Below the pieces are notes generated by a model, which searched no databases, was not told where the DNA came from, and saw only the letters and a program-made list of their open reading frames with translations. The translations under genes and the position numbers were made by a program. Below, piece after piece: positions 1,691-39,092 of a stretch of 64,000 nt of DNA. Numbering within the stretch: the first letter of the stretch is position 1; each line of letters opens with the position of its first letter. The stretch is from Verrucomicrobiia bacterium (GTDB lineage Bacteria > Verrucomicrobiota > Verrucomicrobiia > Palsa-1439). Location of the stretch: assembly GCA_035515475.1 (NCBI GenBank), contig DATJBF010000070.1, forward strand, positions 3,228 through 67,227, in the 5' to 3' direction.

Positions 1691-4255
1691 ATGATTCGCT
1701 TCGACAAACTCACGATCAAAGCGCAGGAGGCGTTGCAGTCGGCGCAAGAGATCGCCCAGAAACTGAACCACCAGGAAGTGGACTGTGAACACTTGTTGTC
1801 GGCGTTGATCCAGCAGCCGGACGGACTGGTGCGTCCACTCTTGGAGAAGCTGGGCGTGAATCCCGATGCCGAGTTGCGCAAGCTCGACGACGCGTTGAAC
1901 CGCCGTTCCCAAGTCCAGGGCGCGGCGGAGCAATACCTGGGCAGGTCTCTCCGTCAGGTCCTGGATTCGGCGCAAGCGCACGCGGACAAGCTCAAGGACC
2001 AGTACGTGAGCACCGAGCATTTCCTGTTGGGACTGGCCGAGCACAAGAAGGTCAACGTGACCGTGACGGCGGTGCTGAAGGCGCTCCGCGAGTTGCGGGG
2101 CAACGCGCAAGTGGCCGATCAGAATCCGGAGGACAAGTATCAAGCGCTGCAAAAGTACGGGCGCGATCTTACGGAGGAAGCGCGGCGTAGCAAACTCGAT
2201 CCCGTGATCGGGCGCGACGCCGAAATCCGCCGCGTGATCCAGGTGCTTTCGCGCCGGACGAAGAACAACCCCGTTCTGATTGGCGACCCGGGGGTTGGGA
2301 AAACGGCCATCGTGGAGGGCCTGGCGCGGCGCATCGTCAGTGGCGACGTTCCCGAAGGTCTCAAAGGCAAGCGGCTGATCGCGATGGACATCGGGGCGAT
2401 GCTGGCCGGCGCGAAATATCGGGGTGAGTTTGAGGACAGGCTGAAAGCGTTCCTCAAGGAGGTCACCGCCAGCGAGGGCCAGATCATCCTGTTCATCGAC
2501 GAGTTGCACACGGTGGTGGGCGCCGGCAAGGCCGAAGGCGCGCCGGTCGATGCGGCCAACATGCTCAAGCCGTCGTTGGCGCGCGGCGAACTGCATACCA
2601 TCGGCGCGACGACGCTGGGCGAGTACCGCAAGTACGTCGAAAAAGATCCCGCGCTCGAGAGGCGATTTCAGCCGATCCTGGTCGGGGAACCGAGCGTCGA
2701 AGACACGATTGCGATCCTGCGGGGCCTGAAGGAACGGTACGAGGTGCATCACGGCGTGCGGATTCAGGACAGCGCCCTGGTGAGCGCGGCGGTGTTGTCG
2801 CACCGGTACATCACCGACCGGTTTCTGCCGGACAAGGCCATCGATCTGGTCGACGAGGCGGCGTCGCGGCTGCGGATCGAGTTGGACTCGTTGCCGACGG
2901 AGATTGACCAGATCGAACGCCGCATCATGCAATTGGAGATCGAGCGCACCGCGTTGAAGAAGGAAAGCGACAAGGCGAGCAAGGAGCGCCTGGTGAAGCT
3001 GGAGAAGGATCTGGCGAATTGGCAGGAACAGAGCCAGAAGCTCAAGGTCCAATGGCAAAACGAGAAGTCGGTTGTCGACGAAATTCGCAATTTGAAATCG
3101 GCCCTCGAGATGTCGAAGGAACAAATCGAACAGGCGAAGCGCGAGGGCGATCTGGCGAAGGCCAGTGAGATTCAGTACGGGCGCTTGCCGGAGCTTCAGA
3201 ACAAGCTGAAGGCGGCGGACCAGAAGCTCGCGAAGCTGCAGAAAAACTCGAAGATGCTCACTGAAGAGGTCACCGAAAACGACATCGCGGAGGTGGTGGC
3301 GTCATGGACCGGCGTGCCCGTCTCGCGCCTCCTGGAAGGCGAACGCGACAAACTGGTGCGGATGGAGGAGCGGTTGCGGCGGCGCGTGGTCGGGCAGGAC
3401 GAGGCGATTGTTGCGGTCTCCAACGCGGTTCGGCGGGCCCGCAGCGGGTTGCAGGATCCAAACCGGCCGATTGGATCATTCATTTTTCTCGGCCCGACCG
3501 GCGTGGGCAAGACCGAGCTGGCTCGGGCCCTGGCGGAGTTCCTGTTCGACAACGAGAACGCGATGGTGCGGATCGACATGAGCGAGTACATGGAGAAACA
3601 CACGGTCGCCCGCTTGATCGGCGCGCCGCCGGGATACGTTGGGTATGAAGAAGGCGGCCAGCTCACGGAGGCGGTGCGGCGCCGGCCATATTCGGTCGTG
3701 CTGTTCGATGAGATCGAAAAGGCGCACCACGACGTGTTCAACGTCCTGTTGCAGATTCTCGACGATGGCCGGCTCACGGACGGGCAGGGACGAGAGGTGG
3801 ATTTCAAGAACGCCGTTATCATCATGACGAGCAACATCGGTTCGCGCCACTTTGCCGAGCGCGTTGGCGACGCGGACGCGGTGCGCCGGCACGTATTCGA
3901 AGATCTGCGGGCGCATTTCCGCCCCGAGTTTCTCAATCGCGTCGATGAGATCATCTTGTTCCACAGCCTGACGATGGAACACATCAAGCAGATCGTGGAG
4001 ATCCAACTCGCACGCGTGCAGCAGCGGCTGGCGGACCAGCATATTGCGCTCACTCTCAGTGACGCCGCGAAAGAGTTGGTAGCGCACGAAGGCTACGACC
4101 CCGTCTTCGGCGCCCGGCCGCTCAAGCGCGTCATTCAGAAACAGATCCTCGACGCGCTCTCACTGGAGATCCTCGCCGGCCGGTTCAGGGAGGGCGACAA
4201 GATCAGAGCGGATGTGACGAAAGGCGGGTCGACCCTCAGCTTCGCGAAAGCTTAG
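1691..4255 (+). CDS. clpB: ATP-dependent chaperone ClpB
   Basis: Clp N-domain, two AAA+ modules ([16 protein letters not shown]), coiled-coil middle domain, 'GARPLKR'; ATG at 1691 preferred over the track start. Confidence 0.97.
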
Positions 4256-6825: not shown

Positions 6826-7700
6826 CAGTCGAGAAACCGTTCCGTGATCGGGGCGTAGGCGTCGATGCGGCGGTCGCGCAGGAACGGCCAGTGTTGGCGC
6901 GTTTCCTCAACCAGGCGGAGGTCGCATTGGCCGACGACCACTTCCTCTGCGTCGTGGCTGGCGCGCGCGATGATCTCGCCGAACGGACCGCAGAGGAACG
7001 AGCCGCCCCAAAACTCAACGGTTCCCTCGCGTCCGACCCGATTGGACACGGCCACGAACACGCCGTTGGCGATGGCATGCGCGCGCTGGATCGTGACCCA
7101 GGCGTCGAACTGTTTCTGTCCGAGGGCTTTCTTCTCGCCGGCGTGCCAGCCGATCGCCGTGGGATAGACGAGGATTTGGGCGCCTTTGAGCGCGGTGAGC
7201 CGGGCGGCCTCGGGGTACCACTGGTCCCAACAAATGAGCGCGCCGATTCGGGCGTGCTTGGTGGTGAACGCTTGGAAACCCAGGTCGCCGGGCGTGAAGT
7301 AGAATTTCTCGTAGTACAGGGGATCGTCGGGGATATGCATCTTGCGATACCGCCCGAGGAGCTTCCCGTTCGCGTCGATCACGACGGCGGTGTTGTGATA
7401 GACGCCGGCCGAGCGTTTCTCAAAGATCGAGCCGATGACGGTGACGCGGTGACGGCGGGCGGTGTTCATGAGTGCCGCCGTGGTTGGACCGGGGATCGGC
7501 TCCGCCAGCGCGAACTGTCGGTGGTCCTCCGACTGGCAGAAATACAGCGACCGGAACAACTCGGGCAAACAGACAACGTGCGCGCCGCGTTCGGCGGCGC
7601 GGGCGACGAGCGCCAATCCCTTCTTCAGGTTTTCCGATGGTTGCGGCGTGCAGCGCATCTGCACGAGGCCAACGGTGATGGTGGGACGCGTCGTCGCCAT
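6825..7700 (-). CDS. aguB: N-carbamoylputrescine amidohydrolase (nitrilase family)
   Basis: 'PELF', 'YRKMHIPDDP.YYEKFYF.PGD', 'ICWDQWYPE', 'FLRDRR'; coupled to aguA; real start MATTRP at 7700. Confidence 0.9.
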   Translation of the reverse strand: MATTRPTITVGLVQMRCTPQPSENLKKGLALVARAAERGAHVVCLPELFRSLYFCQSEDHRQFALAEPIPGPTTAALMNTARRHRVTVIGSIFEKRSAGVYHNTAVVIDANGKLLGRYRKMHIPDDPLYYEKFYFTPGDLGFQAFTTKHARIGALICWDQWYPEAARLTALKGAQILVYPTAIGWHAGEKKALGQKQFDAWVTIQRAHAIANGVFVAVSNRVGREGTVEFWGGSFLCGPFGEIIARASHDAEEVVVGQCDLRLVEETRQHWPFLRDRRIDAYAPITERFLD

Positions 7701-7726
7701 GGAAAAAATCCGGCGGAACCATGATG

Positions 7727-7752
7727 AATTTCTTGCATTGCTGCAAGAAATT
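7727..7752. promoter_or_regulatory. Perfect 11-bp inverted repeat (putative operator) between divergent aguB and pdaD
   Basis: AATTTCTTGCA-TTGC-TGCAAGAAATT in an AT-rich 87-bp intergenic gap. Confidence 0.55.
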
Positions 7753-7787
7753 TGTTTTTGTTCGGCAGGGACGGCGAGAGCCAGCAC

Positions 7788-8336
7788 ATGCATTTTGTTC
7801 CATCGAAGATTTTTCTGACCAAGGGTGTCGGGACGCACAAGCACGAACTGCGCAGTTTCGAGTTGGCGCTGCGCGACGCGGGGATTGAAAAGTGCAACTT
7901 GGTGACCGTATCGAGCATTCTGCCGCCGCGGTGCAAGATCATTTCCCGGAAGCAGGGTGAGCAGCTGCTGCAGCCCGGGCAGATCACGTTCGCGGTCATC
8001 GCCCGCATCGCAACCAACGAACCGCACCGTTTGATCGCGGCGTCGATCGGCGTGGCCCAGCCCGCGGAAGAAGACGCGTATGGGTACCTGAGTGAATTGC
8101 ACGCCTACGGCATGAACGACACCGCGGCCGGCAATTTTTCCGAGGACATGGCGGCGGCGATGCTGGCAACGACGCTGGGGGTGGATTTCAACGAGGACGC
8201 CAGTTGGGATGAGAAGGAGCAGGTATTCCGCATGAGCAGCAAGATCGTGCGCACCAGCAATTGCACGCAGACCGCCGTCGGCCACCCGCAGGGGTTGTAC
8301 ACGACGGTGCTCACGGCGGCGATTTGTCTGTTCTGA
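7788..8336 (+). CDS. pdaD: Pyruvoyl-dependent arginine decarboxylase
   Basis: '[11 protein letters not shown]', '[11 protein letters not shown]...NLV.VSSILPP' (self-cleavage site), 'GYLSE'. Confidence 0.92.
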
Positions 8337-8387: not shown

Positions 8388-8870
8388 GTGAAGAACGACG
8401 TGGTAGAGGTGCAAGTGAGGGGCGTGCTGCCGACGACGAACGGTTGCGCGGTGTTCGTCGGCAACGACGAGAAGACGTTTGTCATCTATGTGGACCACAG
8501 CGTCGGGGCTGCCATCACGATGTTTCTGCGCAACACGCCCAAGGAGCGACCGCTCACGCACGACCTGATCGGCCATATTTTCACGGGACTGGGCGTGAAG
8601 GTGGAGCGCATCGTGATCAACGACCTCAAGAACAGCACGTACTACGCGCGGCTCGTGCTGCGTTCCGAAAACGAACTCGGCAAGAAGATACTCGAGATCG
8701 ACTCGCGCCCCAGCGATTGTATTGCCCTGGCCGTGCAGCAAAAGAGTCCCATCTATGTCGCCACGAAAGTGTTTCATGCGGTCGACGACATGTCGGAGGT
8801 CCTCAAGCGCATGAAACAAGAGGGCGGCGACGAGTTCACCGGTCAGGAAGACGAAGGGCCGACCGAATAA
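8388..8870 (+). CDS. Bifunctional nuclease family protein (DUF151)
   Basis: 'RPLTHDL', 'IDSRPSDCIALA...PIYV'. Confidence 0.92.
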   Translation: MKNDVVEVQVRGVLPTTNGCAVFVGNDEKTFVIYVDHSVGAAITMFLRNTPKERPLTHDLIGHIFTGLGVKVERIVINDLKNSTYYARLVLRSENELGKKILEIDSRPSDCIALAVQQKSPIYVATKVFHAVDDMSEVLKRMKQEGGDEFTGQEDEGPTE

Positions 8871-8880
8871 GCGTGACGGT

Positions 8881-10653
8881 TTACGGCGGTTCTTGCCACC
8901 ACGGTCGCTCGACCTGGTAAACGTAGATTGAATACCCGATGACCACCACGGGCGTTGTGTCCGACAGGGGTTTGTAGAAGTCGCGCCAGCGTTCAGTAAA
9001 ATAGACCCCGCGCAGGTTGGTGGCGCTGACGGCCACCAGTCCGGGCAACTCCGGCGGGGCCACGAATTTCTCGTCAAAAAAGGGCGCGCCGGGCAGGTGA
9101 GTGCAGTGAATCTTGTAGTACGCGGGATCGGCAGTCCCAAAGTAACTCAGGTTGATGTGCTGCACGTGGTTCTCGTCCATCCAACCTTTCAAGCCTTTCA
9201 GGTCCTGGCCCCAGTCGAGGCTGGAATCGACGAGATACTTGTATCCGTTGCGCGGGCCGCCGACGAACCGGTTGAAGAAGGCGAGGTAGTGTGGGGCGAC
9301 CGATGCCAGTTCCCCAACGGCCAGAAGGCACAAGGCTCCCAACAACCCCTGGAGTGGACGTCGTTTCGTATACCAGAGCTTGGCCACAGCTTTCCCCGCC
9401 AGGAGTAACACGAATGGATAAATCGGCAGAATGTGACGCAGGCCGATGTTCAATTTGGCGGCCATCGCCGGCCCGAGGAATCCTGCAATCGACAGCAAAG
9501 CGTAGAGGTCGTCGCGAAAAAAACCGCCGCGCCGCTCGGCGCACAGGAACAGGCCCCCGAGGAAGAGCACGATGACCGACACCGGCGTTTTGATCAAAAA
9601 GGCCAGTGGAAAGAAATACCACCAACCCTGGACGCTGTATTGCCCCGCAAGAAATCCGCCACGGACTTGTGCCTTGGCCTGGGTGACGAAGAAACCCTGG
9701 AGATACGCGTTGGGCAACAAACGATGGTCGTCCGCCCAGCCCACGACGCGGGCGATCCCGGGCACACGGTCCTGCATGGACGGGTCGGCGGGGAAATCCA
9801 TTTTCCACGTGTTCGACGCCGACGGCAGGAAGCGGAAGCCATAACTTGCCCAGATGGCGAGCCACGCCGTAAGGCTGAGCGCGACGAAGATTGCCAGTCC
9901 CGCCAACGTCTTCCGCCCCATGCCGGCCAGTTCACCGCTGTGGCCGAAGCTCCCGCGCCATGGGGTTCGCTGGCAGACGCGCGCAACGAGCAACAGCAGC
10001 ACCACAGGACCGAGAAGAATTGCCGTGAATTTGCTGATCTGCGCCAGCGTGAAGAACCCGATCAGGCCGCAAAGATTGGCGGGGGTCAACTTCCGTGCGG
10101 TCCTCCAAAGAAAGTAGATCGTTCCAAATGCGAAACAGGTCACCCCGAAATCGGTTGTCACGAGGCTCGAATTGGCGAGAATGTTTGGTTCCATCGTGTA
10201 CAGAGCCAACACGATCAGCGCCGGCGCAAACCCGAGGAACTCTCGCGTCCAGCAGAACAGCAGGATGCCCAGCAACACGCCCAGCAGCACGATCATGAAC
10301 CGGGCGGGGTAGAGGAGTCGGTCGGCATCGTTCATGACGTACAGGAAACCATGGCAAAACTCGAACTGCACGGTGCCAATCCAGGCCAACGGGTCGACTT
10401 TGTCGATCACGCGGACTTCCATCTTGATGTCGTGCCTCGCCAGCAGTGGCAACGCCGCCCACATGCGTAGAAACGGCGGATGTTCCGGATCGGTTCGGTA
10501 GTCGTGGAATTTCAGCGCGGTATAGCCCGCGATCAGATGTTGCGGCTCATCCCAGGTCGCCGACTCCTGGCGGTAGCTGGTCACGGTCAGGGTAATGAAC
10601 ACGGCAGCGAAGACGGACAGCGCAAGTGCCGTCCGCACCCAGGGCTGATTCAT
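8881..10653 (-). CDS. GT-C fold (GT39/PMT-like) membrane glycosyltransferase, array copy 5 (most downstream)
   Basis: Polytopic; 'ESATWDEPQH', 'DPEHPP', 'TTDFG', 'LNIGLRH', 'DSSLDWGQ'; start set by alignment with paralogs. Confidence 0.8.
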   Translation of the reverse strand: MNQPWVRTALALSVFAAVFITLTVTSYRQESATWDEPQHLIAGYTALKFHDYRTDPEHPPFLRMWAALPLLARHDIKMEVRVIDKVDPLAWIGTVQFEFCHGFLYVMNDADRLLYPARFMIVLLGVLLGILLFCWTREFLGFAPALIVLALYTMEPNILANSSLVTTDFGVTCFAFGTIYFLWRTARKLTPANLCGLIGFFTLAQISKFTAILLGPVVLLLLVARVCQRTPWRGSFGHSGELAGMGRKTLAGLAIFVALSLTAWLAIWASYGFRFLPSASNTWKMDFPADPSMQDRVPGIARVVGWADDHRLLPNAYLQGFFVTQAKAQVRGGFLAGQYSVQGWWYFFPLAFLIKTPVSVIVLFLGGLFLCAERRGGFFRDDLYALLSIAGFLGPAMAAKLNIGLRHILPIYPFVLLLAGKAVAKLWYTKRRPLQGLLGALCLLAVGELASVAPHYLAFFNRFVGGPRNGYKYLVDSSLDWGQDLKGLKGWMDENHVQHINLSYFGTADPAYYKIHCTHLPGAPFFDEKFVAPPELPGLVAVSATNLRGVYFTERWRDFYKPLSDTTPVVVIGYSIYVYQVERPWWQEPP

Positions 10654-29836: not shown

Positions 29837-30067
29837 CTACGCCACTTTGAGCACGCGACCGCTCTTGATGCAGTTGGTGCAGGCCTTGATCTTGCGGTGC
29901 GTACCGCCCACGACCGCGTGAACGACTTGAAGGTTGGGCTTGAACAACCGCGGCGTGATCGCCGTCACGTGTTGGCCGATGCCGCCCTTCTTCTTGGGCT
30001 GGCCGCGGCGCAGGATGCGGTTGCCGCGCACACCGCCCTTGCCGCAAATTTCACAACGTCGAGACAT
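29837..30067 (-). CDS. rpmB: 50S ribosomal protein L28
   Basis: 'MSRRCEICGK', 'FKPNLQ', 'ACTNCIK'; promoter TTGCGA-N17-TATTGT upstream. Confidence 0.96.
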   Translation of the reverse strand: MSRRCEICGKGGVRGNRILRRGQPKKKGGIGQHVTAITPRLFKPNLQVVHAVVGGTHRKIKACTNCIKSGRVLKVA

Positions 30068-30136: not shown

Positions 30137-31492
30137 TTAGCCGCGCAATTTCCGCGCGATGAGCGGCGCCAATTCGGCGATCGGGATGCGGTCTTGCTTC
30201 ATCGTGTCGCGGTCGCGGAGGGTCACGGTATCTTTCAGCTCCGGGCCCTTTTCGCCGAGCGTCTCAAAGTCGATGGTCGCGCACCACGGCGTGCCCTGTT
30301 CATCCTGGTACCGGTAACGCTTGCCGATGTTGCCGCGGTCGTCCCACTCGGTGGTGACGTGCGGTTGCAGGAGTCGGAAGACCTCCTTGGCTTTCTCGAC
30401 CAGCGGCGGTTTGTTGCGCAACAGGGGAAACACCGCCACTTTGACCGGCGCGATGCGCGGGGCGAAGCGCATGACGACGCGCGTCTCCGTTTTGCCGCTG
30501 TCGTCGGCGATCGGTTCTTCGTCATACGCCGAGCAGATGAGCGCGAGGGCGATGCGGTCCACGCCGGCGGAGGGCTCGACGACGTGCGGGATGTATTTCT
30601 CCTTCGTCTCGTCGTCGAAATATTCCATGCTCTTGCCGGAAAACTTCTGGTGCTGGCTCAGGTCGAAATCACCGCGGGCGGCGATGCCTTCCAGTTCCTG
30701 CACGCCGAACGGAAACTCGAACATCACGTCCACGCAGGCGCTGGCATAGTGGGCGAGTTCCTCCTTCCTGTAATTGTAGCAACTGAGCTTGTTGGCCGGC
30801 AGGCCGATGGACTCGTACCACTTCATCCGTTCTTTCACCCAGTATTCGTGCCAGCGGGAGTCCGTGCCGGGCTTGACAAAGAACTCCAGCTCCATCTGCT
30901 CGAACTCGCGGCTGCGGAAGGTGAAATTGCGCGGGTTGATTTCGTTGCGGAAGGCCTTGCCGATTTGCGCGATGCCGAACGGGACTTTTTGGCGGGACAC
31001 GCTGAGCACGTTGAGGAAGTCGGCGAAAATGGCCTGCGCCGTTTCGGGCCGTAGATAAGCGACGCTGGCGGCATCCTCGACGGGGCCGACATTGGTCTTG
31101 AACATCAGATTGAACTTGCGCGCCTCGGTGAACTCGTGCGGGCCGCCTGCGGGGCATTTCGTGTCGGGCAACTGATCGGCCCGCCAGCGGCCCTTGCACT
31201 TTTTGCAGTCCACCATCGGGTCGGTGAACGCGGTCGTGTGTCCGCTGGCTTCCCAAACGCGGGGATGCGTGATGATGGTGCCGTCGATGCCGACGACGTC
31301 GGTGCGGCTGCGGACCACGTCATTCCACCAGGCGTCCTTGATATTGCGTTTGAGCTCGGCGCCGGCTGGGCCGTAATCCCAAAACCCGTTGATGCCGCCG
31401 TAGATTTCGCTGGATTGGAAGACGAACCCGCGCCGTTTGCACAGCGCGACAATTTTGTCCATCAACGGCGGCGATTGCTTCGGGGCTGACAT
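30137..31492 (-). CDS. glyQS: Glycine--tRNA ligase, alpha2 (eukaryote/Thermus-like) type
   Basis: '[15 protein letters not shown]', 'YLRPETAQ', 'GKAFRNEI', 'FR.REFEQME', 'IEPS.G' equivalent VVEPSAG, anticodon domain. Confidence 0.96.
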   Translation of the reverse strand: MSAPKQSPPLMDKIVALCKRRGFVFQSSEIYGGINGFWDYGPAGAELKRNIKDAWWNDVVRSRTDVVGIDGTIITHPRVWEASGHTTAFTDPMVDCKKCKGRWRADQLPDTKCPAGGPHEFTEARKFNLMFKTNVGPVEDAASVAYLRPETAQAIFADFLNVLSVSRQKVPFGIAQIGKAFRNEINPRNFTFRSREFEQMELEFFVKPGTDSRWHEYWVKERMKWYESIGLPANKLSCYNYRKEELAHYASACVDVMFEFPFGVQELEGIAARGDFDLSQHQKFSGKSMEYFDDETKEKYIPHVVEPSAGVDRIALALICSAYDEEPIADDSGKTETRVVMRFAPRIAPVKVAVFPLLRNKPPLVEKAKEVFRLLQPHVTTEWDDRGNIGKRYRYQDEQGTPWCATIDFETLGEKGPELKDTVTLRDRDTMKQDRIPIAELAPLIARKLRG

Positions 31493-31503
31493 TGCGAGCG
31501 CGA

Positions 31504-31533
31504 ACTATCGCACGAACGTTTTGTGCGAGTCAA
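31504..31533 (-). promoter_or_regulatory. sigma70 promoter of glyS
   Basis: TTGACT-N18-GATAGT with extended TG, 11 nt before ATG. Confidence 0.6.
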
Positions 31534-31751
31534 GTTGCCAGCGCGCCCGGCGAGGCGGTACCGGTCCCGATCTCGCCAGGCGAACATTTTTCTCGCGACC
31601 GAACGTGGATTGCGTGAGAAGCCGCAACCCCAGAGACCCGGTCGGGCCCTTTCGTACAGCCTCCCACTTTTTGAGCCACAACTCCAAGCGCAGTGCCGCT
31701 TGAGATGAGATTGCATCGGCGGACCTGCCAGCTCTGACGAATTTAGTCTAT

Positions 31752-31844
31752 GTAATCCCAGAACCCGTTGATGCCGCCGTAGATTTCGCTGGATTGGAAG
31801 ACGAACCCGCGGCGTTTGCACAGCGCGACAATTTTGTCCATCAA
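31752..31844 (-). repeat. Direct-repeat copy of the glyS 5' region (31373-31465), forming a truncated mini-ORF
   Basis: 93 bp, 91/93 identical; reads [32 protein letters not shown]-stop. Confidence 0.9.
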
Positions 31845-32016
31845 ACCGGCTCGTTTTGGCCCTGTCAGGGCAGGCAGACCATGGGGAAAACCCTTAGATC
31901 ATGTTGAGATGAGGCGGTTCGGTAGTGGCATCTTCGGTGCTCTAGCGGTTGTGCTGGGAGGTGCCCCCCATAAGGACAGATTGAGGAAGGAGAGGCGTTA
32001 TGCGGAGAGCGGCGTT

Positions 32017-34173
32017 ATGAAAAGACTGTTGGGGAGCATATGTTCTGGTGCCCTGCTCTTGGGCATGGTCACCGTGAACAGCCGTGCGGCGACCACCACC
32101 AATCTGTTGGAGATGGACTTGGAAGCGCTGGTGAACGTCGAGGTCCGAAGCCCCGCCGGATTGACCGAAATCGATTCCCGCCGGGTGCCGGTCGCGATGA
32201 CGGAACTCGACGCGCGGGATATACAGCAGTCGGGTGCCCGAGATTTGGATCACTTGTTGGAGATTTACGTTCCCAACACGCAGTTCCTCCTGCATCACAC
32301 CCCACAACCTGATTTCGGATTTCGGGGAATCATCAGCGACCGGGATGACAAATACCTTTACCAGGTGAATGGCGTCACGATGAACAACCGGCTGTTGCAG
32401 GGCGCGGGGGACGAGCGCGAGCTGCCGTTGCTGGGGGACATCCGCTCCGTGGACGTGGTGCGGGGCCCGGCGTCGGCCACGCACGGCGCGGGCGCACTGG
32501 CCGGAGTCATTGACGTGGAAACATACAACGGCCTGACGTTTCAGGGAGCTGACCTGAACCTCCGCCAAGGTGTGATCAATCAATACACTGCGGCCGAGGC
32601 GCGGTATGGCCACAAGTTCAGCGACACATCCGGGTTGTTTGCGTATGGCGGCGTCGCCGACGTGCAAGGCGCGGACAATACTTATTACATCGGACACTCC
32701 TATCCGGCCAAGAACGGTTTGCCCGCCAATGTCGTCGGGGAACCGGTTGACGGGCCGATCCCGGGTCTCAATGAGCCGGCGTTCGGCTCGCTCTGGGGCA
32801 AGGCTCACCTGAGTTACGTGAACGGGCCGTTTGAGATCTGGGGCCGATTCGTCCAAGACGGCGAGGTGGCGCCGCCGAGCCGCTCGATTTATTCGAGCAC
32901 GCGGCCGGCGGACAGATCTCTGGACGACTGGACGTTGGGGCGTGAGATCCGAAATCAGCAGTACACCGCCACCGCCAGCTTCAAGAAGGACCTCTCGCCG
33001 TCGTGGAACCTGGAAATGCTGGAAAGCTGCGACCTATGGGTGTTCAAGGATCAGCGGGCCTTCACCAGCCCGAAGCCGACGCGCGTGGCGCACGAGGACC
33101 AAGCGTTCAGCCGCGCCATTGCGGATTGGACTCCCAACAGCGCCCATTCGTTGGCCTTCGGCGTGGAATACTCCCACATGTGGTTCCACGATCCGCCATA
33201 TGCCGATGCCTTGGATATCTCGCCGGTGGTTTCCAATCGTAACTGGCAGACCGACACAATTTCTTTCCTGGCTGAGCACCAGTGGAAGATCACCAAGGAC
33301 TGGACGACCTTTTTGAGTTTTCGCACGGACAAACACACCTACTCCGGCTGGCTGCTCTCGCCACGAGGCACGGTGGTATTCACGCCGACGGATCGGGACA
33401 CGTTCAAGGCCATGGCCGGGCAGTCCGTCCGCCGCAGTGGGGATGAGGAGTTGTGGGCGGAGTGGGAACGGGAGCGCACGGTCCCGGACCCGGAAACGCT
33501 CCGTTCCTACGAGGGTTCGTACGAGCACCGATTCTGGGACCAGTGGAGCGTGGGGGCTAACGGGTTTTACGAAGACTATAGTGCCATTGGTTACAGCTCG
33601 ACTTTGTATCATTCGGTGTCCCTCGGTCGTTTTCGAATTGCTGGCGGCGAGTTTCTGATCAGCTACACCAATCGGGCCACGCGCCTCACGTTGTCCGAGG
33701 GAGTAGCGAAGCTGGTGAATTCCAAGGTGCCCACGAGTTTGCCGGCGGGCGGGCAGGGGATCACCGCCGAGCCATACGGCTATGGGCACGACCTGGCGGA
33801 GTGGGCGCCGTCGATCACCAAGCTGGCACTCCTGCATGATATCGGTAGGAGATGGACGGTCAGTTCCTCGCTGGTTTATTATTCAGGGTTCCCCGGGGCT
33901 CAGGACTACGCCAAGTACAACGGCTCGCGCTCGTCTCCGCTGTCCGGCTTGCCCTATAGCGATGCGGGAGACACGACGCCGTACGGCCCCAATCTGTACG
34001 TGAATGCAGGCCTGGAGTTTCGTCCGTCGCCGAACTGGACCATCCGTGTGGACGGATACAACCTTGCGGCGCTTGCGGACAAGTCGTTGTCCAAACGCAA
34101 CTATTACTTCCGACTATCGGAATACAGCGTGGAGCCGGCCTCAGCGACCGTGTCCGTGCGTTACCGATTCTAA
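32017..34173 (+). CDS. TonB-dependent outer-membrane receptor (plug + barrel)
   Basis: Signal peptide; plug motif 'VDVVRGPASATHGAGALAGVIDV'; C-terminal '...VRYRF'. Confidence 0.88.
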   Translation: MKRLLGSICSGALLLGMVTVNSRAATTTNLLEMDLEALVNVEVRSPAGLTEIDSRRVPVAMTELDARDIQQSGARDLDHLLEIYVPNTQFLLHHTPQPDFGFRGIISDRDDKYLYQVNGVTMNNRLLQGAGDERELPLLGDIRSVDVVRGPASATHGAGALAGVIDVETYNGLTFQGADLNLRQGVINQYTAAEARYGHKFSDTSGLFAYGGVADVQGADNTYYIGHSYPAKNGLPANVVGEPVDGPIPGLNEPAFGSLWGKAHLSYVNGPFEIWGRFVQDGEVAPPSRSIYSSTRPADRSLDDWTLGREIRNQQYTATASFKKDLSPSWNLEMLESCDLWVFKDQRAFTSPKPTRVAHEDQAFSRAIADWTPNSAHSLAFGVEYSHMWFHDPPYADALDISPVVSNRNWQTDTISFLAEHQWKITKDWTTFLSFRTDKHTYSGWLLSPRGTVVFTPTDRDTFKAMAGQSVRRSGDEELWAEWERERTVPDPETLRSYEGSYEHRFWDQWSVGANGFYEDYSAIGYSSTLYHSVSLGRFRIAGGEFLISYTNRATRLTLSEGVAKLVNSKVPTSLPAGGQGITAEPYGYGHDLAEWAPSITKLALLHDIGRRWTVSSSLVYYSGFPGAQDYAKYNGSRSSPLSGLPYSDAGDTTPYGPNLYVNAGLEFRPSPNWTIRVDGYNLAALADKSLSKRNYYFRLSEYSVEPASATVSVRYRF

Positions 34174-34806: not shown

Positions 34807-36807
34807 GTGCGGCTCCTCCAAAATGCCTCCATTCGGCGCAAGCAGATGCTGGTCATCATGCTCACCTGTATCGTTGCGCTGCTGTTGGCCTGCACGGGGT
34901 TCGTCGTTTACGAAATCGTCTCGTATCGACAGGAATTGGTCTGGAGTCTTACGTCGCTGGGCCAGATGGTTGGCGATAACGCCAGTGGGGCCCTCGACTT
35001 CAATGATCCCAAGGCCGCGGAAGACATGATGTCGGCGTTCCGGATGCGGCCGAACATTGTGGCCGCGTGCATTTACGCAAAGGACGGGAGTCCATTCGCC
35101 AAGTATCTTCGGACCGACCTTCCGGCCGACTTCTCGTTTCCAAAGCTGGAGACGGACGGCTACAGGTTTACCGACGGCCGGTTGATGTTGTTCCACACCA
35201 TTCTGGAAAAGGGCGATAAGATTGGCTCGATTTACCTGGAGTCGGACCTCGGACGGTTGACGGCGCGGTTGAGAAGGTACGCAATTATCGTCATCGTCGT
35301 GTTGTGCGCGTCCGTGTTGGCCGCCTTTCTCCTGTCGTCCGGACTTCAGCGCTGGCTGTCGAAACCGATCCTGCATCTGGCCGAGATCGCCAAGGCGGTC
35401 GCGGTGGAGAAGAACTATGCCGTTCGTGCCGTCAAGCAGAGCGGGGACGAATTGGGCATACTCACCGACGGTTTCAACGAGATGCTGGCGCAAATTCAGC
35501 AGCGGGACGCCGCCCTCCAGGCCGCCAACGAAGGTTTGGAGAAACGCGTGGAGGCACGCACGCAGGAGTTGGAGAGTTCCCTGTCGCTGCTGCATGCCAC
35601 GGTTGAGTCCACAGCCGACGGCATTCTGGTGGTGGATCGCCGGGGCAAGGTCGTGACCTACAACAAGAAGTTCGCGACCATGTGGCACATTCCGGAGACC
35701 GTGCTCTCGTCCGATGACGACGAACGGTTGCTGGGGGCGGTGCTCGATCAACTGAGCGATCCGGACGGATTCCTTGACAAGGTGCGGCAGTTGTACGCCA
35801 CCCCTGACGCGGAGAGTTTTGACGTGATCACTTTCAAGGATGGCCGGATCTTCGAACGATACTCGCAGCCCCAGTATGTGCGGGATCAAATTGTCGGCCG
35901 TGTCTGGAATTTCCGGGACGTGAGCGAGCGCAAGCGTGCCGAAAGCAAACTGGAAACCCTCCACCGGCAACTGCTGGACACGTCCCGCCAGGCCGGTATG
36001 GCCGAGGTGGCGACGAACGTGCTGCACAACGTCGGCAACGTGCTCAACACCGTGAACGTCTCTATTTCCATCGCCTCGGACAAGGTCCGGAAATCCAGAA
36101 TCGCGAACCTGGCCAAGGCGGCCGGGCTGCTCGAGGAGCACCGGGGCGATTTGGCTGCGTTTCTCACGCACGATGCGAAAGGAACGCAGTTGCCTGATTA
36201 CCTGATCAAACTCGCGAGCCATTTGACCGAGGAACAAGGGGAAATTCTCAAGGAGCTGCAGTTACTCCAGAGCAACGTCGAGCACATCAAGGACATCGTG
36301 GCTATGCAGCAGAGTTACGCCAAGGTTTCGGGCATGGTGGAGTCCTTGCCGCCGGTGGAACTGGTCGAGGACGCACTGCGCATGAACGCCGCCGCGTTGG
36401 GGCGGCACGAGGTGCAGGTCGTCCGCGAGTATGGCGACGCCCCGCTCGTATCGGTGGAAAAACACAAGGTATTGCAAATCTTGGTGAACCTGATTCGCAA
36501 TGCCAAGTACGCGTTGGACGAGGGCGGTCGTTCCGACAAGCGGTTGACACTGCGGATCGCTCGCAATGGCGACGACTTCGTCCACGTTTCGGTGATCGAC
36601 AACGGCGTGGGGATCCCCGCGGAGAACGTGACGCGGATTTTTGAGCACGGCTTCACCACCCGCAAAGGCGGTCATGGATTTGGCCTGCATAGCGGGGCGT
36701 TGGCAGCCCAAGAGATGGGCGGGACGTTGAGTGTCAGCAGCGATGGCCCCGGCCACGGCGCCGTCTTCACCCTGGCATTGCCGATCAAACCGAAGGAGGG
36801 GAAATGA
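34807..36807 (+). CDS. Sensor histidine kinase: TM-periplasmic (YfiN/CHASE8-like)-TM-HAMP-PAS-HisKA-HATPase
   Basis: 'AL.FND..AA', HAMP 'DELG.L.DGFN.ML', H-box 'VLHNVGN', N/G boxes 'NLIRNA', 'GFTT..GGHGFGL'. Confidence 0.9.
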   Translation: MRLLQNASIRRKQMLVIMLTCIVALLLACTGFVVYEIVSYRQELVWSLTSLGQMVGDNASGALDFNDPKAAEDMMSAFRMRPNIVAACIYAKDGSPFAKYLRTDLPADFSFPKLETDGYRFTDGRLMLFHTILEKGDKIGSIYLESDLGRLTARLRRYAIIVIVVLCASVLAAFLLSSGLQRWLSKPILHLAEIAKAVAVEKNYAVRAVKQSGDELGILTDGFNEMLAQIQQRDAALQAANEGLEKRVEARTQELESSLSLLHATVESTADGILVVDRRGKVVTYNKKFATMWHIPETVLSSDDDERLLGAVLDQLSDPDGFLDKVRQLYATPDAESFDVITFKDGRIFERYSQPQYVRDQIVGRVWNFRDVSERKRAESKLETLHRQLLDTSRQAGMAEVATNVLHNVGNVLNTVNVSISIASDKVRKSRIANLAKAAGLLEEHRGDLAAFLTHDAKGTQLPDYLIKLASHLTEEQGEILKELQLLQSNVEHIKDIVAMQQSYAKVSGMVESLPPVELVEDALRMNAAALGRHEVQVVREYGDAPLVSVEKHKVLQILVNLIRNAKYALDEGGRSDKRLTLRIARNGDDFVHVSVIDNGVGIPAENVTRIFEHGFTTRKGGHGFGLHSGALAAQEMGGTLSVSSDGPGHGAVFTLALPIKPKEGK

Positions 36808-39092
36808 TGAAATCCCCCGCTTCTGAGAAGAATCATCGCATTTTGGTAATCGACGACAATCGGGCCATCCACGACGATTTCCGCAAAATACTCGGCGGCC
36901 CGACAACCGAGAGTCCGGACCTTGCCGAGGCGGAAACGGCGTTGTTTGGAGAACGGGCGCCAACGCTACAGCCGGCACGTTTTCAGATTGATTCTGCCTA
37001 TCAGGGACAAGAAGGACTGGCGGTGGTCCAGAAATCAGTCCAACTGAAGCAACCCTACGCGGTGGCGTTCGTGGACATCCGCATGCCGCCGGGCTGGGAT
37101 GGCGTAGAGACGACGCGGAAACTGTGGGAGGTCGACCCGGACCTTCAGGTGGTGATTTGCACGGCCCACTCCGATTATTCATGGGAAGACATCTGCAGAG
37201 AGATTGGCAACTCGGACCGGTTTCTCGTTCTCAAGAAGCCATTCGACACGGTCGAGGTGCTGCAGTTGGCGAATGCGTTGACGGAGAAATGGTGGCTGCA
37301 ACAAGAGGTGAAGCGGCAGGTAGATGAGCTGGAACTGAAGGTGGCGGAGCGCACGAAGGAATTGCGGGAAGCCAACGGCTTGCTCAAGAAGGAAGTGGTG
37401 GAGCGCACGGAGGCCGAGGACAGCTTACGCATCAAGACCGAGCAACTTCAGGCCATTACCGACGCCATGGTGGCATTCCTCCAGAGCGGCGACGAATGTC
37501 TGCCCAGCGAGATTCTCTTACGGAACGCCCTGCAGCAGACGGGCAGCGAATGCGGGTTTGTGGGGTTGGTCACCGATGGGCCGTCACTCCGCATCTTGGC
37601 CCAGGCGGGCTTGGGTTGGGAACCAACCAAGGACGGGAAACGGCTGGAGATCATCAATTTCAAGAATCTCTTCGGCGGCGTCATCACCAGCGGGCAGGCG
37701 GTCGTCTCCAACGAACCAGGCGCCGATTCCCCCTCCGCCGAGGGACTGCCAATTGGTACGACGTCCCTGCAGCGTTTTCTGGCGGTACCGGTCCTCAGTG
37801 GAACCCAGGTTGTCGGGATGATCAGCGTGGCCAATCGCCCCGATGCGTACGCCGGGCGCGAACAGAATAAAATCGGTGTTCTGGCGCGGGTAGCCGGTGT
37901 TTTGCTCGACAACTACCGGCGCAAGGAGCGGGAGGCGATTCTGGAGAAGCAGTTGCGGCAATCCCAGAAGGTCGAGGCCATTGGTCGACTCGCGGGTGGC
38001 GTGGCCCACGATTTCAACAACATTCTGACCGCCATTCTCGGCTACAGCGACTTGCTGCTGTTGCGAATGAAGGCCGACGATTCGCTCCACGGAAGCGTGG
38101 AGGAAATTCGCAACGCGGCCCAGCGCGCAGCGGCGTTGACCCGGCAACTGCTGGCGTTCAGTCGCAAACAGATTCTGGAGCCCAAGGTCGTCAACCTGAA
38201 CGATATTGTGCTCGACCTGAGCAAGATGTTGAGGCGCATGATCGGTGAAGACATCGAATTGATTACCCACGGGGCCTGGGACCTCGGGCGGACGAAAGTC
38301 GACCCGGGCCAGATCGAACAGGTCATCATTAACCTGGCCATCAATGCACGCGACGCCATGCCGCACGGTGGGAAGCTGACAATCGAGACTGCCAATGTGG
38401 CGTTGGACAGGGCAAGCACACTCCGTTTGGGCGACGTGGCCCCGGGCAAGTACGTCAGAGTTGCCGTCAGTGACACCGGCACGGGGATGACTCCCGAAGT
38501 TCAAGCCCGGCTCTTCGAGCCATTTTTCACGACCAAGGCAGAGGGGAAAGGCACAGGGTTGGGACTGGCAATGTGCTACGGCATCGTCAAACAAAGCGGC
38601 GGCCATATCACCGTTTATAGCGAGCCGGGCCACGGGACGGTCTTCAAAATCTATCTGCCCCGGATCGAGGAGGCGGCCGCCCCCGAAGCGAAGCAGGATC
38701 AATCGGGCGACCTGCCTCAGGGCAAGGAAACGATCCTTCTCGTCGAGGACGAAGCCGGCCTGCGCAAGCTGACGAAGTTGGTTCTCCAAGACCTCGGATA
38801 CACGATTCTGGAAGCGGCCAACGGTTGTGAAGCCCTCCGCATCGCCAAGGAACGGGACGGACGCGGGTTCGATCTCGTCTTTACCGACGTGGTAATGCCG
38901 CAGATGGGAGGCAAAGAACTGGCCGACCATATTCACTCCCTCCGGCCCGATGCCAAAGTGCTCTTCACTTCCGGGTACACGGAGGACGCGATTGTCGATC
39001 ATGGCGTTCTCAACGATGACGTGGCCTTTCTGCATAAGCCGTACACGCCCAACATACTCGCGTGCAAGCTGCGGGAGGTCTTGGATACTTGA
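36804..39092 (+). CDS. Hybrid kinase REC-GAF-HisKA-HATPase-REC
   Basis: 'ILVIDD', 'VDIRMP', H-box '[10 protein letters not shown]', '[14 protein letters not shown]', C-terminal REC. Confidence 0.92.

Follow-up and report, generated by a model that had tools for sequence, protein, structure and literature searches.

A truncated copy of the glyS 5' end beside the intact gene in a Verrucomicrobiia genome: most likely a commonplace trace of DNA exchange

SXT at prfC and the dusA-specific integrative elements supply their target gene with a replacement promoter and 5' end. Short intrachromosomal repeats evolve in concert by gene conversion, for example the duplicated tuf genes. Homology-facilitated illegitimate recombination (HFIR) that leaves orphan fragments beside a conserved anchor is an established model, and the arrays of orphan fragments in type VI secretion system (T6SS) effector/immunity, Rhs and contact-dependent inhibition (CDI) loci are thought to have been left by it (PMC5361080, citing de Vries and Wackernagel, 2002; Prudhomme et al., 2002; Meier and Wackernagel, 2003). 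The locus compared with these systems here is glyS, the gene for glycyl-tRNA synthetase (GlyRS), in a stretch of 64,000 nucleotides (the window) from a Verrucomicrobiia bacterium (assembly GCA_035515475.1, contig DATJBF010000070.1, positions 3,228 to 67,227 of the forward strand). The beginning of the gene occurs here a second time, as a truncated copy that lies upstream of the working glyS promoter. This upstream copy is probably a non-functional relic of recombination that joined two glyS-upstream haplotypes in tandem, and the feature most likely records DNA exchange of an ordinary kind rather than a place where mobile elements dock or a mini-gene with a regulatory role. The parts of the locus are as follows (window coordinates).

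30137–31492, minus strand: glyS (glyQS), dimeric-type glycyl-tRNA synthetase, 451 amino acids (NF003211/TIGR00389; NF003211 E=1e-184)
31373–31465, minus strand: repeat copy 1, codons 10–40 of the working glyS
31466–31751, no strand assigned: spacer, with the 9 N-terminal codons and promoter of the working glyS (~31466–31545) followed by segment X (~31546–31751)
31504–31533, minus strand: U1, the predicted working glyS promoter, with -35 TTGACT, an 18-nt spacer and a TG-extended -10 GATAGT
31743–31751, minus strand: junction past the truncated copy, ATA GAC TAA (Ile-Asp-stop), at which the similarity to glyS breaks off
31752–31844, minus strand: repeat copy 2, truncated glyS fragment, codons 10–40, 91/93 identical to copy 1
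31845–31934, minus strand: U2, putative relic of a glyS promoter and start region, recognised by anchored comparison with the glyS upstream regions of relatives

The two copies are 93 nt long, match at 91 positions (98%), are spaced 379 nt apart and enclose 286 bp. Both mismatches are silent third-position changes, CGG/CGC (Arg) at position 33 in the sense direction and TTT/TTC (Phe) at position 84, and the chance of this for two random changes is 0.04. Copy 2 and the junction make up a minus-strand open reading frame (ORF) of 32 amino acids, (L)MDKIV...WDYID*, at 31743–31844. All of this agrees with a preliminary description of the locus, which had reported the repeat, its silent differences, the short ORF ending in WDY and ATA GAC TAA, and the presence of the glyS promoter in the 286 bp between the copies; the TTGACT-18-GATAGT site does lie inside the spacer. 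Self-comparison of the window gave the glyS pair as its sole near-identical repeat, so a chance match is not the explanation, and no third copy occurs in the 3.8-Mb, 94-contig assembly.

The repeated stretch is the most conserved part of glyS, with 80–92% DNA identity across genera. Its two copies resemble each other more than either resembles any of 29 relatives, which are equally distant from copy 1 and copy 2 (at best 86/93, and 74/93 in the congener G001; genomes are numbered with G and genera with g). Both copies have the Ile codon ATT at a position where 29/29 relatives have ATC. The 93 bp thus carry lineage-specific bases and belong, in both copies, to the source genome's own lineage. 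A search with a 40-residue peptide found a second in-locus N-terminal glyS copy in this genome alone among 47 genomes of the order.

The near-identical block begins, as the preliminary description had it, at the TTG-ATG of MDKIV. The TTG is, however, Leu codon 10 and not an initiation codon. An ATG 8–10 codons ahead of LMDKIV is invariant in 22/22 family relatives, and the true start of glyS is therefore placed at ATG 31492 (MSAPKQSPPLMDKIV), so that the repeat begins at codon 10. Public gene callers start glyS at ATG 31462 (Met11), giving 441 amino acids, and call the 32-residue fragment as a gene. Neither a glyQ-type gene nor a second full glyS copy was found in the assembly, where glyS is the sole GlyRS gene.

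In the family, the glyS promoter is compact, TTGACT-N17/18-(C/G)ATAGT, and stands a few bases ahead of the ATG. U1 has this form. Its -10 box ends 11 nt ahead of ATG 31492, and the glyS leader is therefore predicted to be very short and the mRNA nearly leaderless. A promoter scan of 31200–32200 gave U1 as the sole sigma-70-like site on either strand. U1 is also matched by a profile of relatives' upstream regions (E=2e-5) and agrees with 23 of the 26 conserved upstream columns, defined as those kept in at least 85% of family members. In genus g7 (G018, G024; loci L014/L012), the conserved -10 box is separated from the glyS ATG by an extra insert of ~40 nt, which is without counterpart in other genera and may be a lineage-specific leader.

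Homology to glyS does not stop with the near-identical block. The preliminary description had confined it to 93 bp, which holds for near-identity, but weaker homology runs ~45–90 nt past 31844, into U2. Blast alignments from several relatives extend 13–45 nt beyond that point. In ungapped comparison anchored at the repeat boundary, U2 matches the glyS upstream regions of relatives at 20/30 (G005/G017), 29/45 and 45/90 positions (P<=0.0003 against random window segments). Of the 26 conserved columns, U2 agrees with 17. It has lost three that are invariant in the family, the T of the -35 box, the A of the -10 box and the A of the ATG; the changes are ATG to CTG, -35 TTGAC to TCAAC and -10 ATAGT to ATGGT. 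Conserved upstream sites are thus changed at 9/26 against 2/93 in the repeat (Fisher p=1.3e-5). The upstream copy is accordingly a pseudo-5' end of glyS with a recognisable but degraded promoter and start, and the intact replacement set, predicted from its sequence to restore expression, stands beside the working gene.

U1 and U2 are of different family types, and the sequences flanking the anchor thus differ in origin. They match at 6 of 30 anchored positions. The N-terminal extension attached to U1 is of the 'PPL' type (..SPPL, 9 codons), shared with the congener G001, g7 and g10, and that attached to U2 is ..KRAGL (8 codons), the type of g5, g9, g11 and g14. The nearest relatives differ accordingly, being the congener G001 for U1 and the genera g5, g3, g12 and g11 for U2. 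The orphan fragment holds the conserved anchor itself.

The spacer beyond the U1 region consists of X, ~200 bp (~31546–31751), for which no homolog was found in the loci of 29 relatives, in phages or in plasmids. The 286 bp hold no ORF of note. Neither the junction nor the promoter was matched exactly in metagenome contigs (0 matches each), a set from which records of the source genome itself may be missing. A regulatory role is highly improbable, whether the 32-residue ORF is translated as a leader or mini-protein or the fragment tunes glyS expression as a decoy RNA or antisense. Its frame is intact with both differences silent, and the fragment sits in the upstream region of a TonB receptor operon, co-transcription with which would make it antisense to the glyS 5' end. 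Yet the fragment is absent from 46/46 other genomes of the order, the congener included, no promoter-like site lies near it on either strand, and its own start region is degraded. An Rfam scan of 31000–32300 gave nothing meaningful, the RNA fold predicted for the spacer is unremarkable (z=-1.3), and near-complete identity at synonymous sites indicates copying and not selection on a peptide. The short translated leader put forward in the preliminary description is therefore not upheld, since the fragment is unique to this genome, promoterless and nearly identical at its synonymous sites.

Under the preferred explanation, the recombination relic, the haplotype of X and U1 would contribute the canonical promoter together with the start codon and an extension of the 'PPL' type, and it would now drive the essential gene. 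The U2 haplotype, with the '..AGL' type of other genera, would have kept only the first 31 conserved codons and would still be joined to the TonB/YfiR/kinase operon, as in G005. A DNA fragment of a related genome may have paired via the conserved 5' coding stretch of glyS, its other end being joined illegitimately after codon 40. The route would be HFIR or a Campbell-type single crossover of a circularised fragment, in either case with no site-specific recombinase. Either X and U1 came in with the gene start, pushing the resident U2 end aside, or the TonB operon came in and brought part of the donor's glyS along; the odds between these two assignments of resident and arriving haplotype are roughly even.

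The 98% identity of the copies may have arisen in two ways. Gene conversion or templated repair could have rewritten the relic with the sequence of the working copy as its promoter drifted. Alternatively, the event could have been recent and between very close genomes whose glyS-upstream regions already differed. The close donor is mildly favoured by the fact that both copy differences are silent, and gene conversion by the fact that three otherwise invariant positions of promoter and start are lost. Recombination between the repeats would be survivable only as conversion, since deletion would leave glyS behind a degraded promoter and CTG. The direct repeat may therefore persist because an essential, single-copy gene would lose its only intact promoter and ATG along with it.

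In the wider locus, a conserved core gene meets a variable TonB/kinase operon, which begins with the following gene.

32017–34173, plus strand: TonB-dependent receptor, with which the divergent receptor/YfiR-like/sensor-kinase operon bordering U2 opens

On the 3' side of glyS, the order secDF-recJ-rpmB-glyS is syntenic across relatives; here rpmB, for ribosomal protein L28 (76 amino acids, 29837–30067, minus strand, PF00830 in public calls), lies between recJ and glyS. The 5' neighbour is variable: G005 has a TonB receptor at this place, G009, G008 and G018 have kinase paralogs, and the genes of G001, G015 and G012 are unrelated. The TonB receptor occurs in 10/45 family genomes, not in the congener G001, and adjoins the glyS 5' end in G005 as it does here. 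Orthologs of the operon are found in g5 and some g7 genomes and are lacking in G001. The kinase gene at 36804–39092 has full-length orthologs in g5 genomes and none in G001.

Mosaicism inside glyS itself is suggested by sequence comparison. The first 390 nt have 37 mismatches to G018 versus 69 to G001, with a breakpoint that was chosen post hoc by chi-square. In the remaining 940 nt, the source genome (G000) is sister to G001 with an ultrafast bootstrap (UFBoot) value of 98, and the approximately unbiased (AU) test rejects a grouping with g7 (p=0.005).

Several observations weigh against the recombination scar. The AU test does not reject a sister position to G001 for the 5' part of glyS (p=0.17), and the mosaic signal is weak. 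U2 is detected neither by the family profile hidden Markov model (HMM) nor by the promoter scan, and its decay was scored against a consensus of which the upstream region of G015, presumably working, matches just 16/26 conserved columns. Silent-only differences between the copies fit an allelic origin from functional genes better than the drift of a pseudogene. The parental 'empty' haplotype was not found in relatives or metagenome contigs, and all relatives are metagenome-assembled genomes (MAGs) of other genera or one distant congener.

The preliminary description had considered the duplication a remnant of an element integrated in glyS. Its core, a scar that left a truncated 5' fragment beside a gene with its own promoter, agrees with the present anatomy; the site-specific element with glyS as a non-tRNA attachment site (attB) does not, there being no integrase, no occupied sites and no diverged replacement end. 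Such an element, a phage, an element both integrative and conjugative (ICE) or an integrative mobilizable element (IME), would have used the glyS 5' end as attB and later lost its interior, of which ~200 bp would be left. It is an unlikely source, even though the order of displaced promoter and truncated 5' fragment, foreign DNA, and replacement promoter with intact gene is the matching architecture. The spacer holds no integrase, excisionase or other element gene and has no phage or plasmid similarity. No match to PF00589 was found on the 92.6-kb contig (C70), serine recombinases not having been searched separately. An occupied glyS site was seen in 0/47 genomes of the order and 0/401 of the phylum, and the full integrase-bearing element that the preliminary description had proposed to look for in relatives was thus not seen in either set. 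A search of IMG/VR for glyS 5' fragments returned five viral contigs, all with full-length glyS and none with a second fragment. The promoter that an element would have brought is the canonical family type (23/26), and the one that would be native is deviant. Finally, the repeat is 93 bp long and 98% identical with lineage-specific bases; prfC and dusA elements have short cores and diverged replacement N-termini.

That the structure arose in assembly, by chimeric joining of the glyS-upstream contexts of two strains in the MAG, is extremely improbable. The genome is a 94-contig MAG, and redundant strain contigs at glyS do occur in a related MAG (G060); the second glyS matches in G060 and G012 are such contigs. 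However, an exact-protein look-up recovered the layout of TonB receptor, 32-residue ORF, ~280 bp, GlyRS, L28 and RecJ on at least two contigs in ENA, ERZ27256514:k141_5934471 (158,675 bp) and ERZ27256617:k141_5662227 (33,565 bp), which differ in length and are both 100% identical to the window across the duplicate structure. Their names indicate MEGAHIT assembly with k=141; since the repeat is shorter (93 bp), any k-mer that covers a copy takes in unique flank as well. The copies differ at two positions and hence do not form a collapsed shared node. The junction after codon 40 has no sequence in common with the real gene, and a de Bruijn path across it therefore needs real reads. A comparable structure is also present in G167. 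The strain-mixture mis-assembly that had been raised as an alternative is thus largely refuted by the identical structure in two further assemblies.

Against window positions 30194–30296, inside the 3' end of glyS, contig ERZ27256617:k141_5662227 has 14 mismatches packed in its last ~105 bases; elsewhere it is 100% identical to the window. The tip looks like a chimera from the glyS of a co-occurring relative and shows tangling of the graph at this conserved gene, a point in favour of an artefact.

Duplicated glyS ends occur elsewhere in the phylum. Among 401 phylum genomes, G167, of another class, is the only other case of an N-terminal glyS duplication, and in G015, of the same family, a 3' fragment is involved.

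L052 (G167:C55:10000-28000), 7134–7561 and 8498–8925: duplicates flanking mazE/mazF
L016 (G015:C21:9221-13549), 2633–2808 and 4046–4221: duplicated stretch of the glyS 3' end, one copy a fragment beyond an inserted 377-residue tetratricopeptide repeat (TPR) gene

The G167 duplication covers 428 bp at 99.3% identity, with the glyS promoter, start and first ~94 codons. Between its copies lie 936 bp with the genes for MazE (PF04014) and MazF/PemK (PF02452), in the orientation of glyS (7639–8229, minus). A module of this kind is typical of the survivors of decayed elements, which speaks for an integrative element, but no integrase was found nearby in either G167 or G015. Past the truncated copy in G167 there is a Ser/Thr kinase gene, and the relative G093 is without the whole block. 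The G015 fragment is 176 bp long, 90% identical and 1.2 kb downstream of the intact glyS; a third glyS 3' fragment stands at the end of another contig in the same genome, at 8575–8667 of L055 (G015:C102).

There are thus three independent A-B-A cases: this genome, G167 (mazEF) and G015 (TPR gene). Repeated duplication of glyS ends beside small inserts fits gene-anchored recombination better than a dedicated element. A wider generalisation is put forward tentatively, as a rather doubtful possibility: conserved glyS ends may be recurrent homology anchors for recombinase-independent insertion of small accessory cassettes in Verrucomicrobiota, the 93-bp fragment being kept identical by conversion and loss of the repeat being blocked. 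If true, this would be a self-stabilising 'promoter-swap' architecture.

Genome-wide self-comparison for similar scars gave other local repeats that are dispersed and like repetitive extragenic palindromic (REP) sequences or are of unclear kind, and no genome-wide pattern is claimed. The gene metH (contig C15:15798-19298) has low-complexity in-frame segments, such as ...SERSEESHNVSETLPFDSAQGKLAQGD..., and part of it recurs 1.2 kb downstream, over 113 bp with 97% identity, at C15:20079-20191; this looks like a REP- or miniature inverted-repeat transposable element (MITE)-like in-frame insert. On contig C13, a 187-bp direct repeat (8759-8945 and 10455-10641, 98.9%) flanks a single ORF of ~380 amino acids.

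The locus is a small, clean example of an accessory operon stitched beside a conserved housekeeping gene. Such joins leave pseudo-gene ends that mislead annotation, as in the 32-residue fragment called as a gene and the glyS start called 10 codons late. If the reading with gene conversion and blocked deletion holds, the locus shows one way for a direct repeat to become locked into a genome by an essential gene. No new mobile element, attachment site or regulatory device is revealed.

Compared with integrative elements of the prfC/dusA type, the locus has the same sequence of old promoter and truncated 5' end, insert, and new promoter with restored gene. It differs in being without an integrase, a recombination directionality factor (RDF) or an element body, and in the absence of occupied sites in relatives. 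Its repeat is long and near-identical, with bases of the host lineage and no amino-acid change, and its 'new' promoter is the canonical family promoter.

The concerted evolution of tuf genes is paralleled by a sharply bounded, near-identical block that includes synonymous sites and has diverged flanks. Here, however, one partner is a 93-bp pseudogene fragment, and the case for conversion comes from the contrast between 2/93 and 9/26, with the identity explained equally by a recent close donor.

The arrays of orphan fragments attributed to HFIR differ in that known orphans are a toxin tip or an immunity gene; at glyS, an essential housekeeping gene provides the anchor with its 5' end, and a promoter and 31 codons make up the orphan. 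The likeness lies in the layout itself. In both, a conserved stretch beside a variable region serves as the anchor, one junction would be homologous and one illegitimate with no dedicated recombinase, and the displaced orphan retains part of the conserved sequence.

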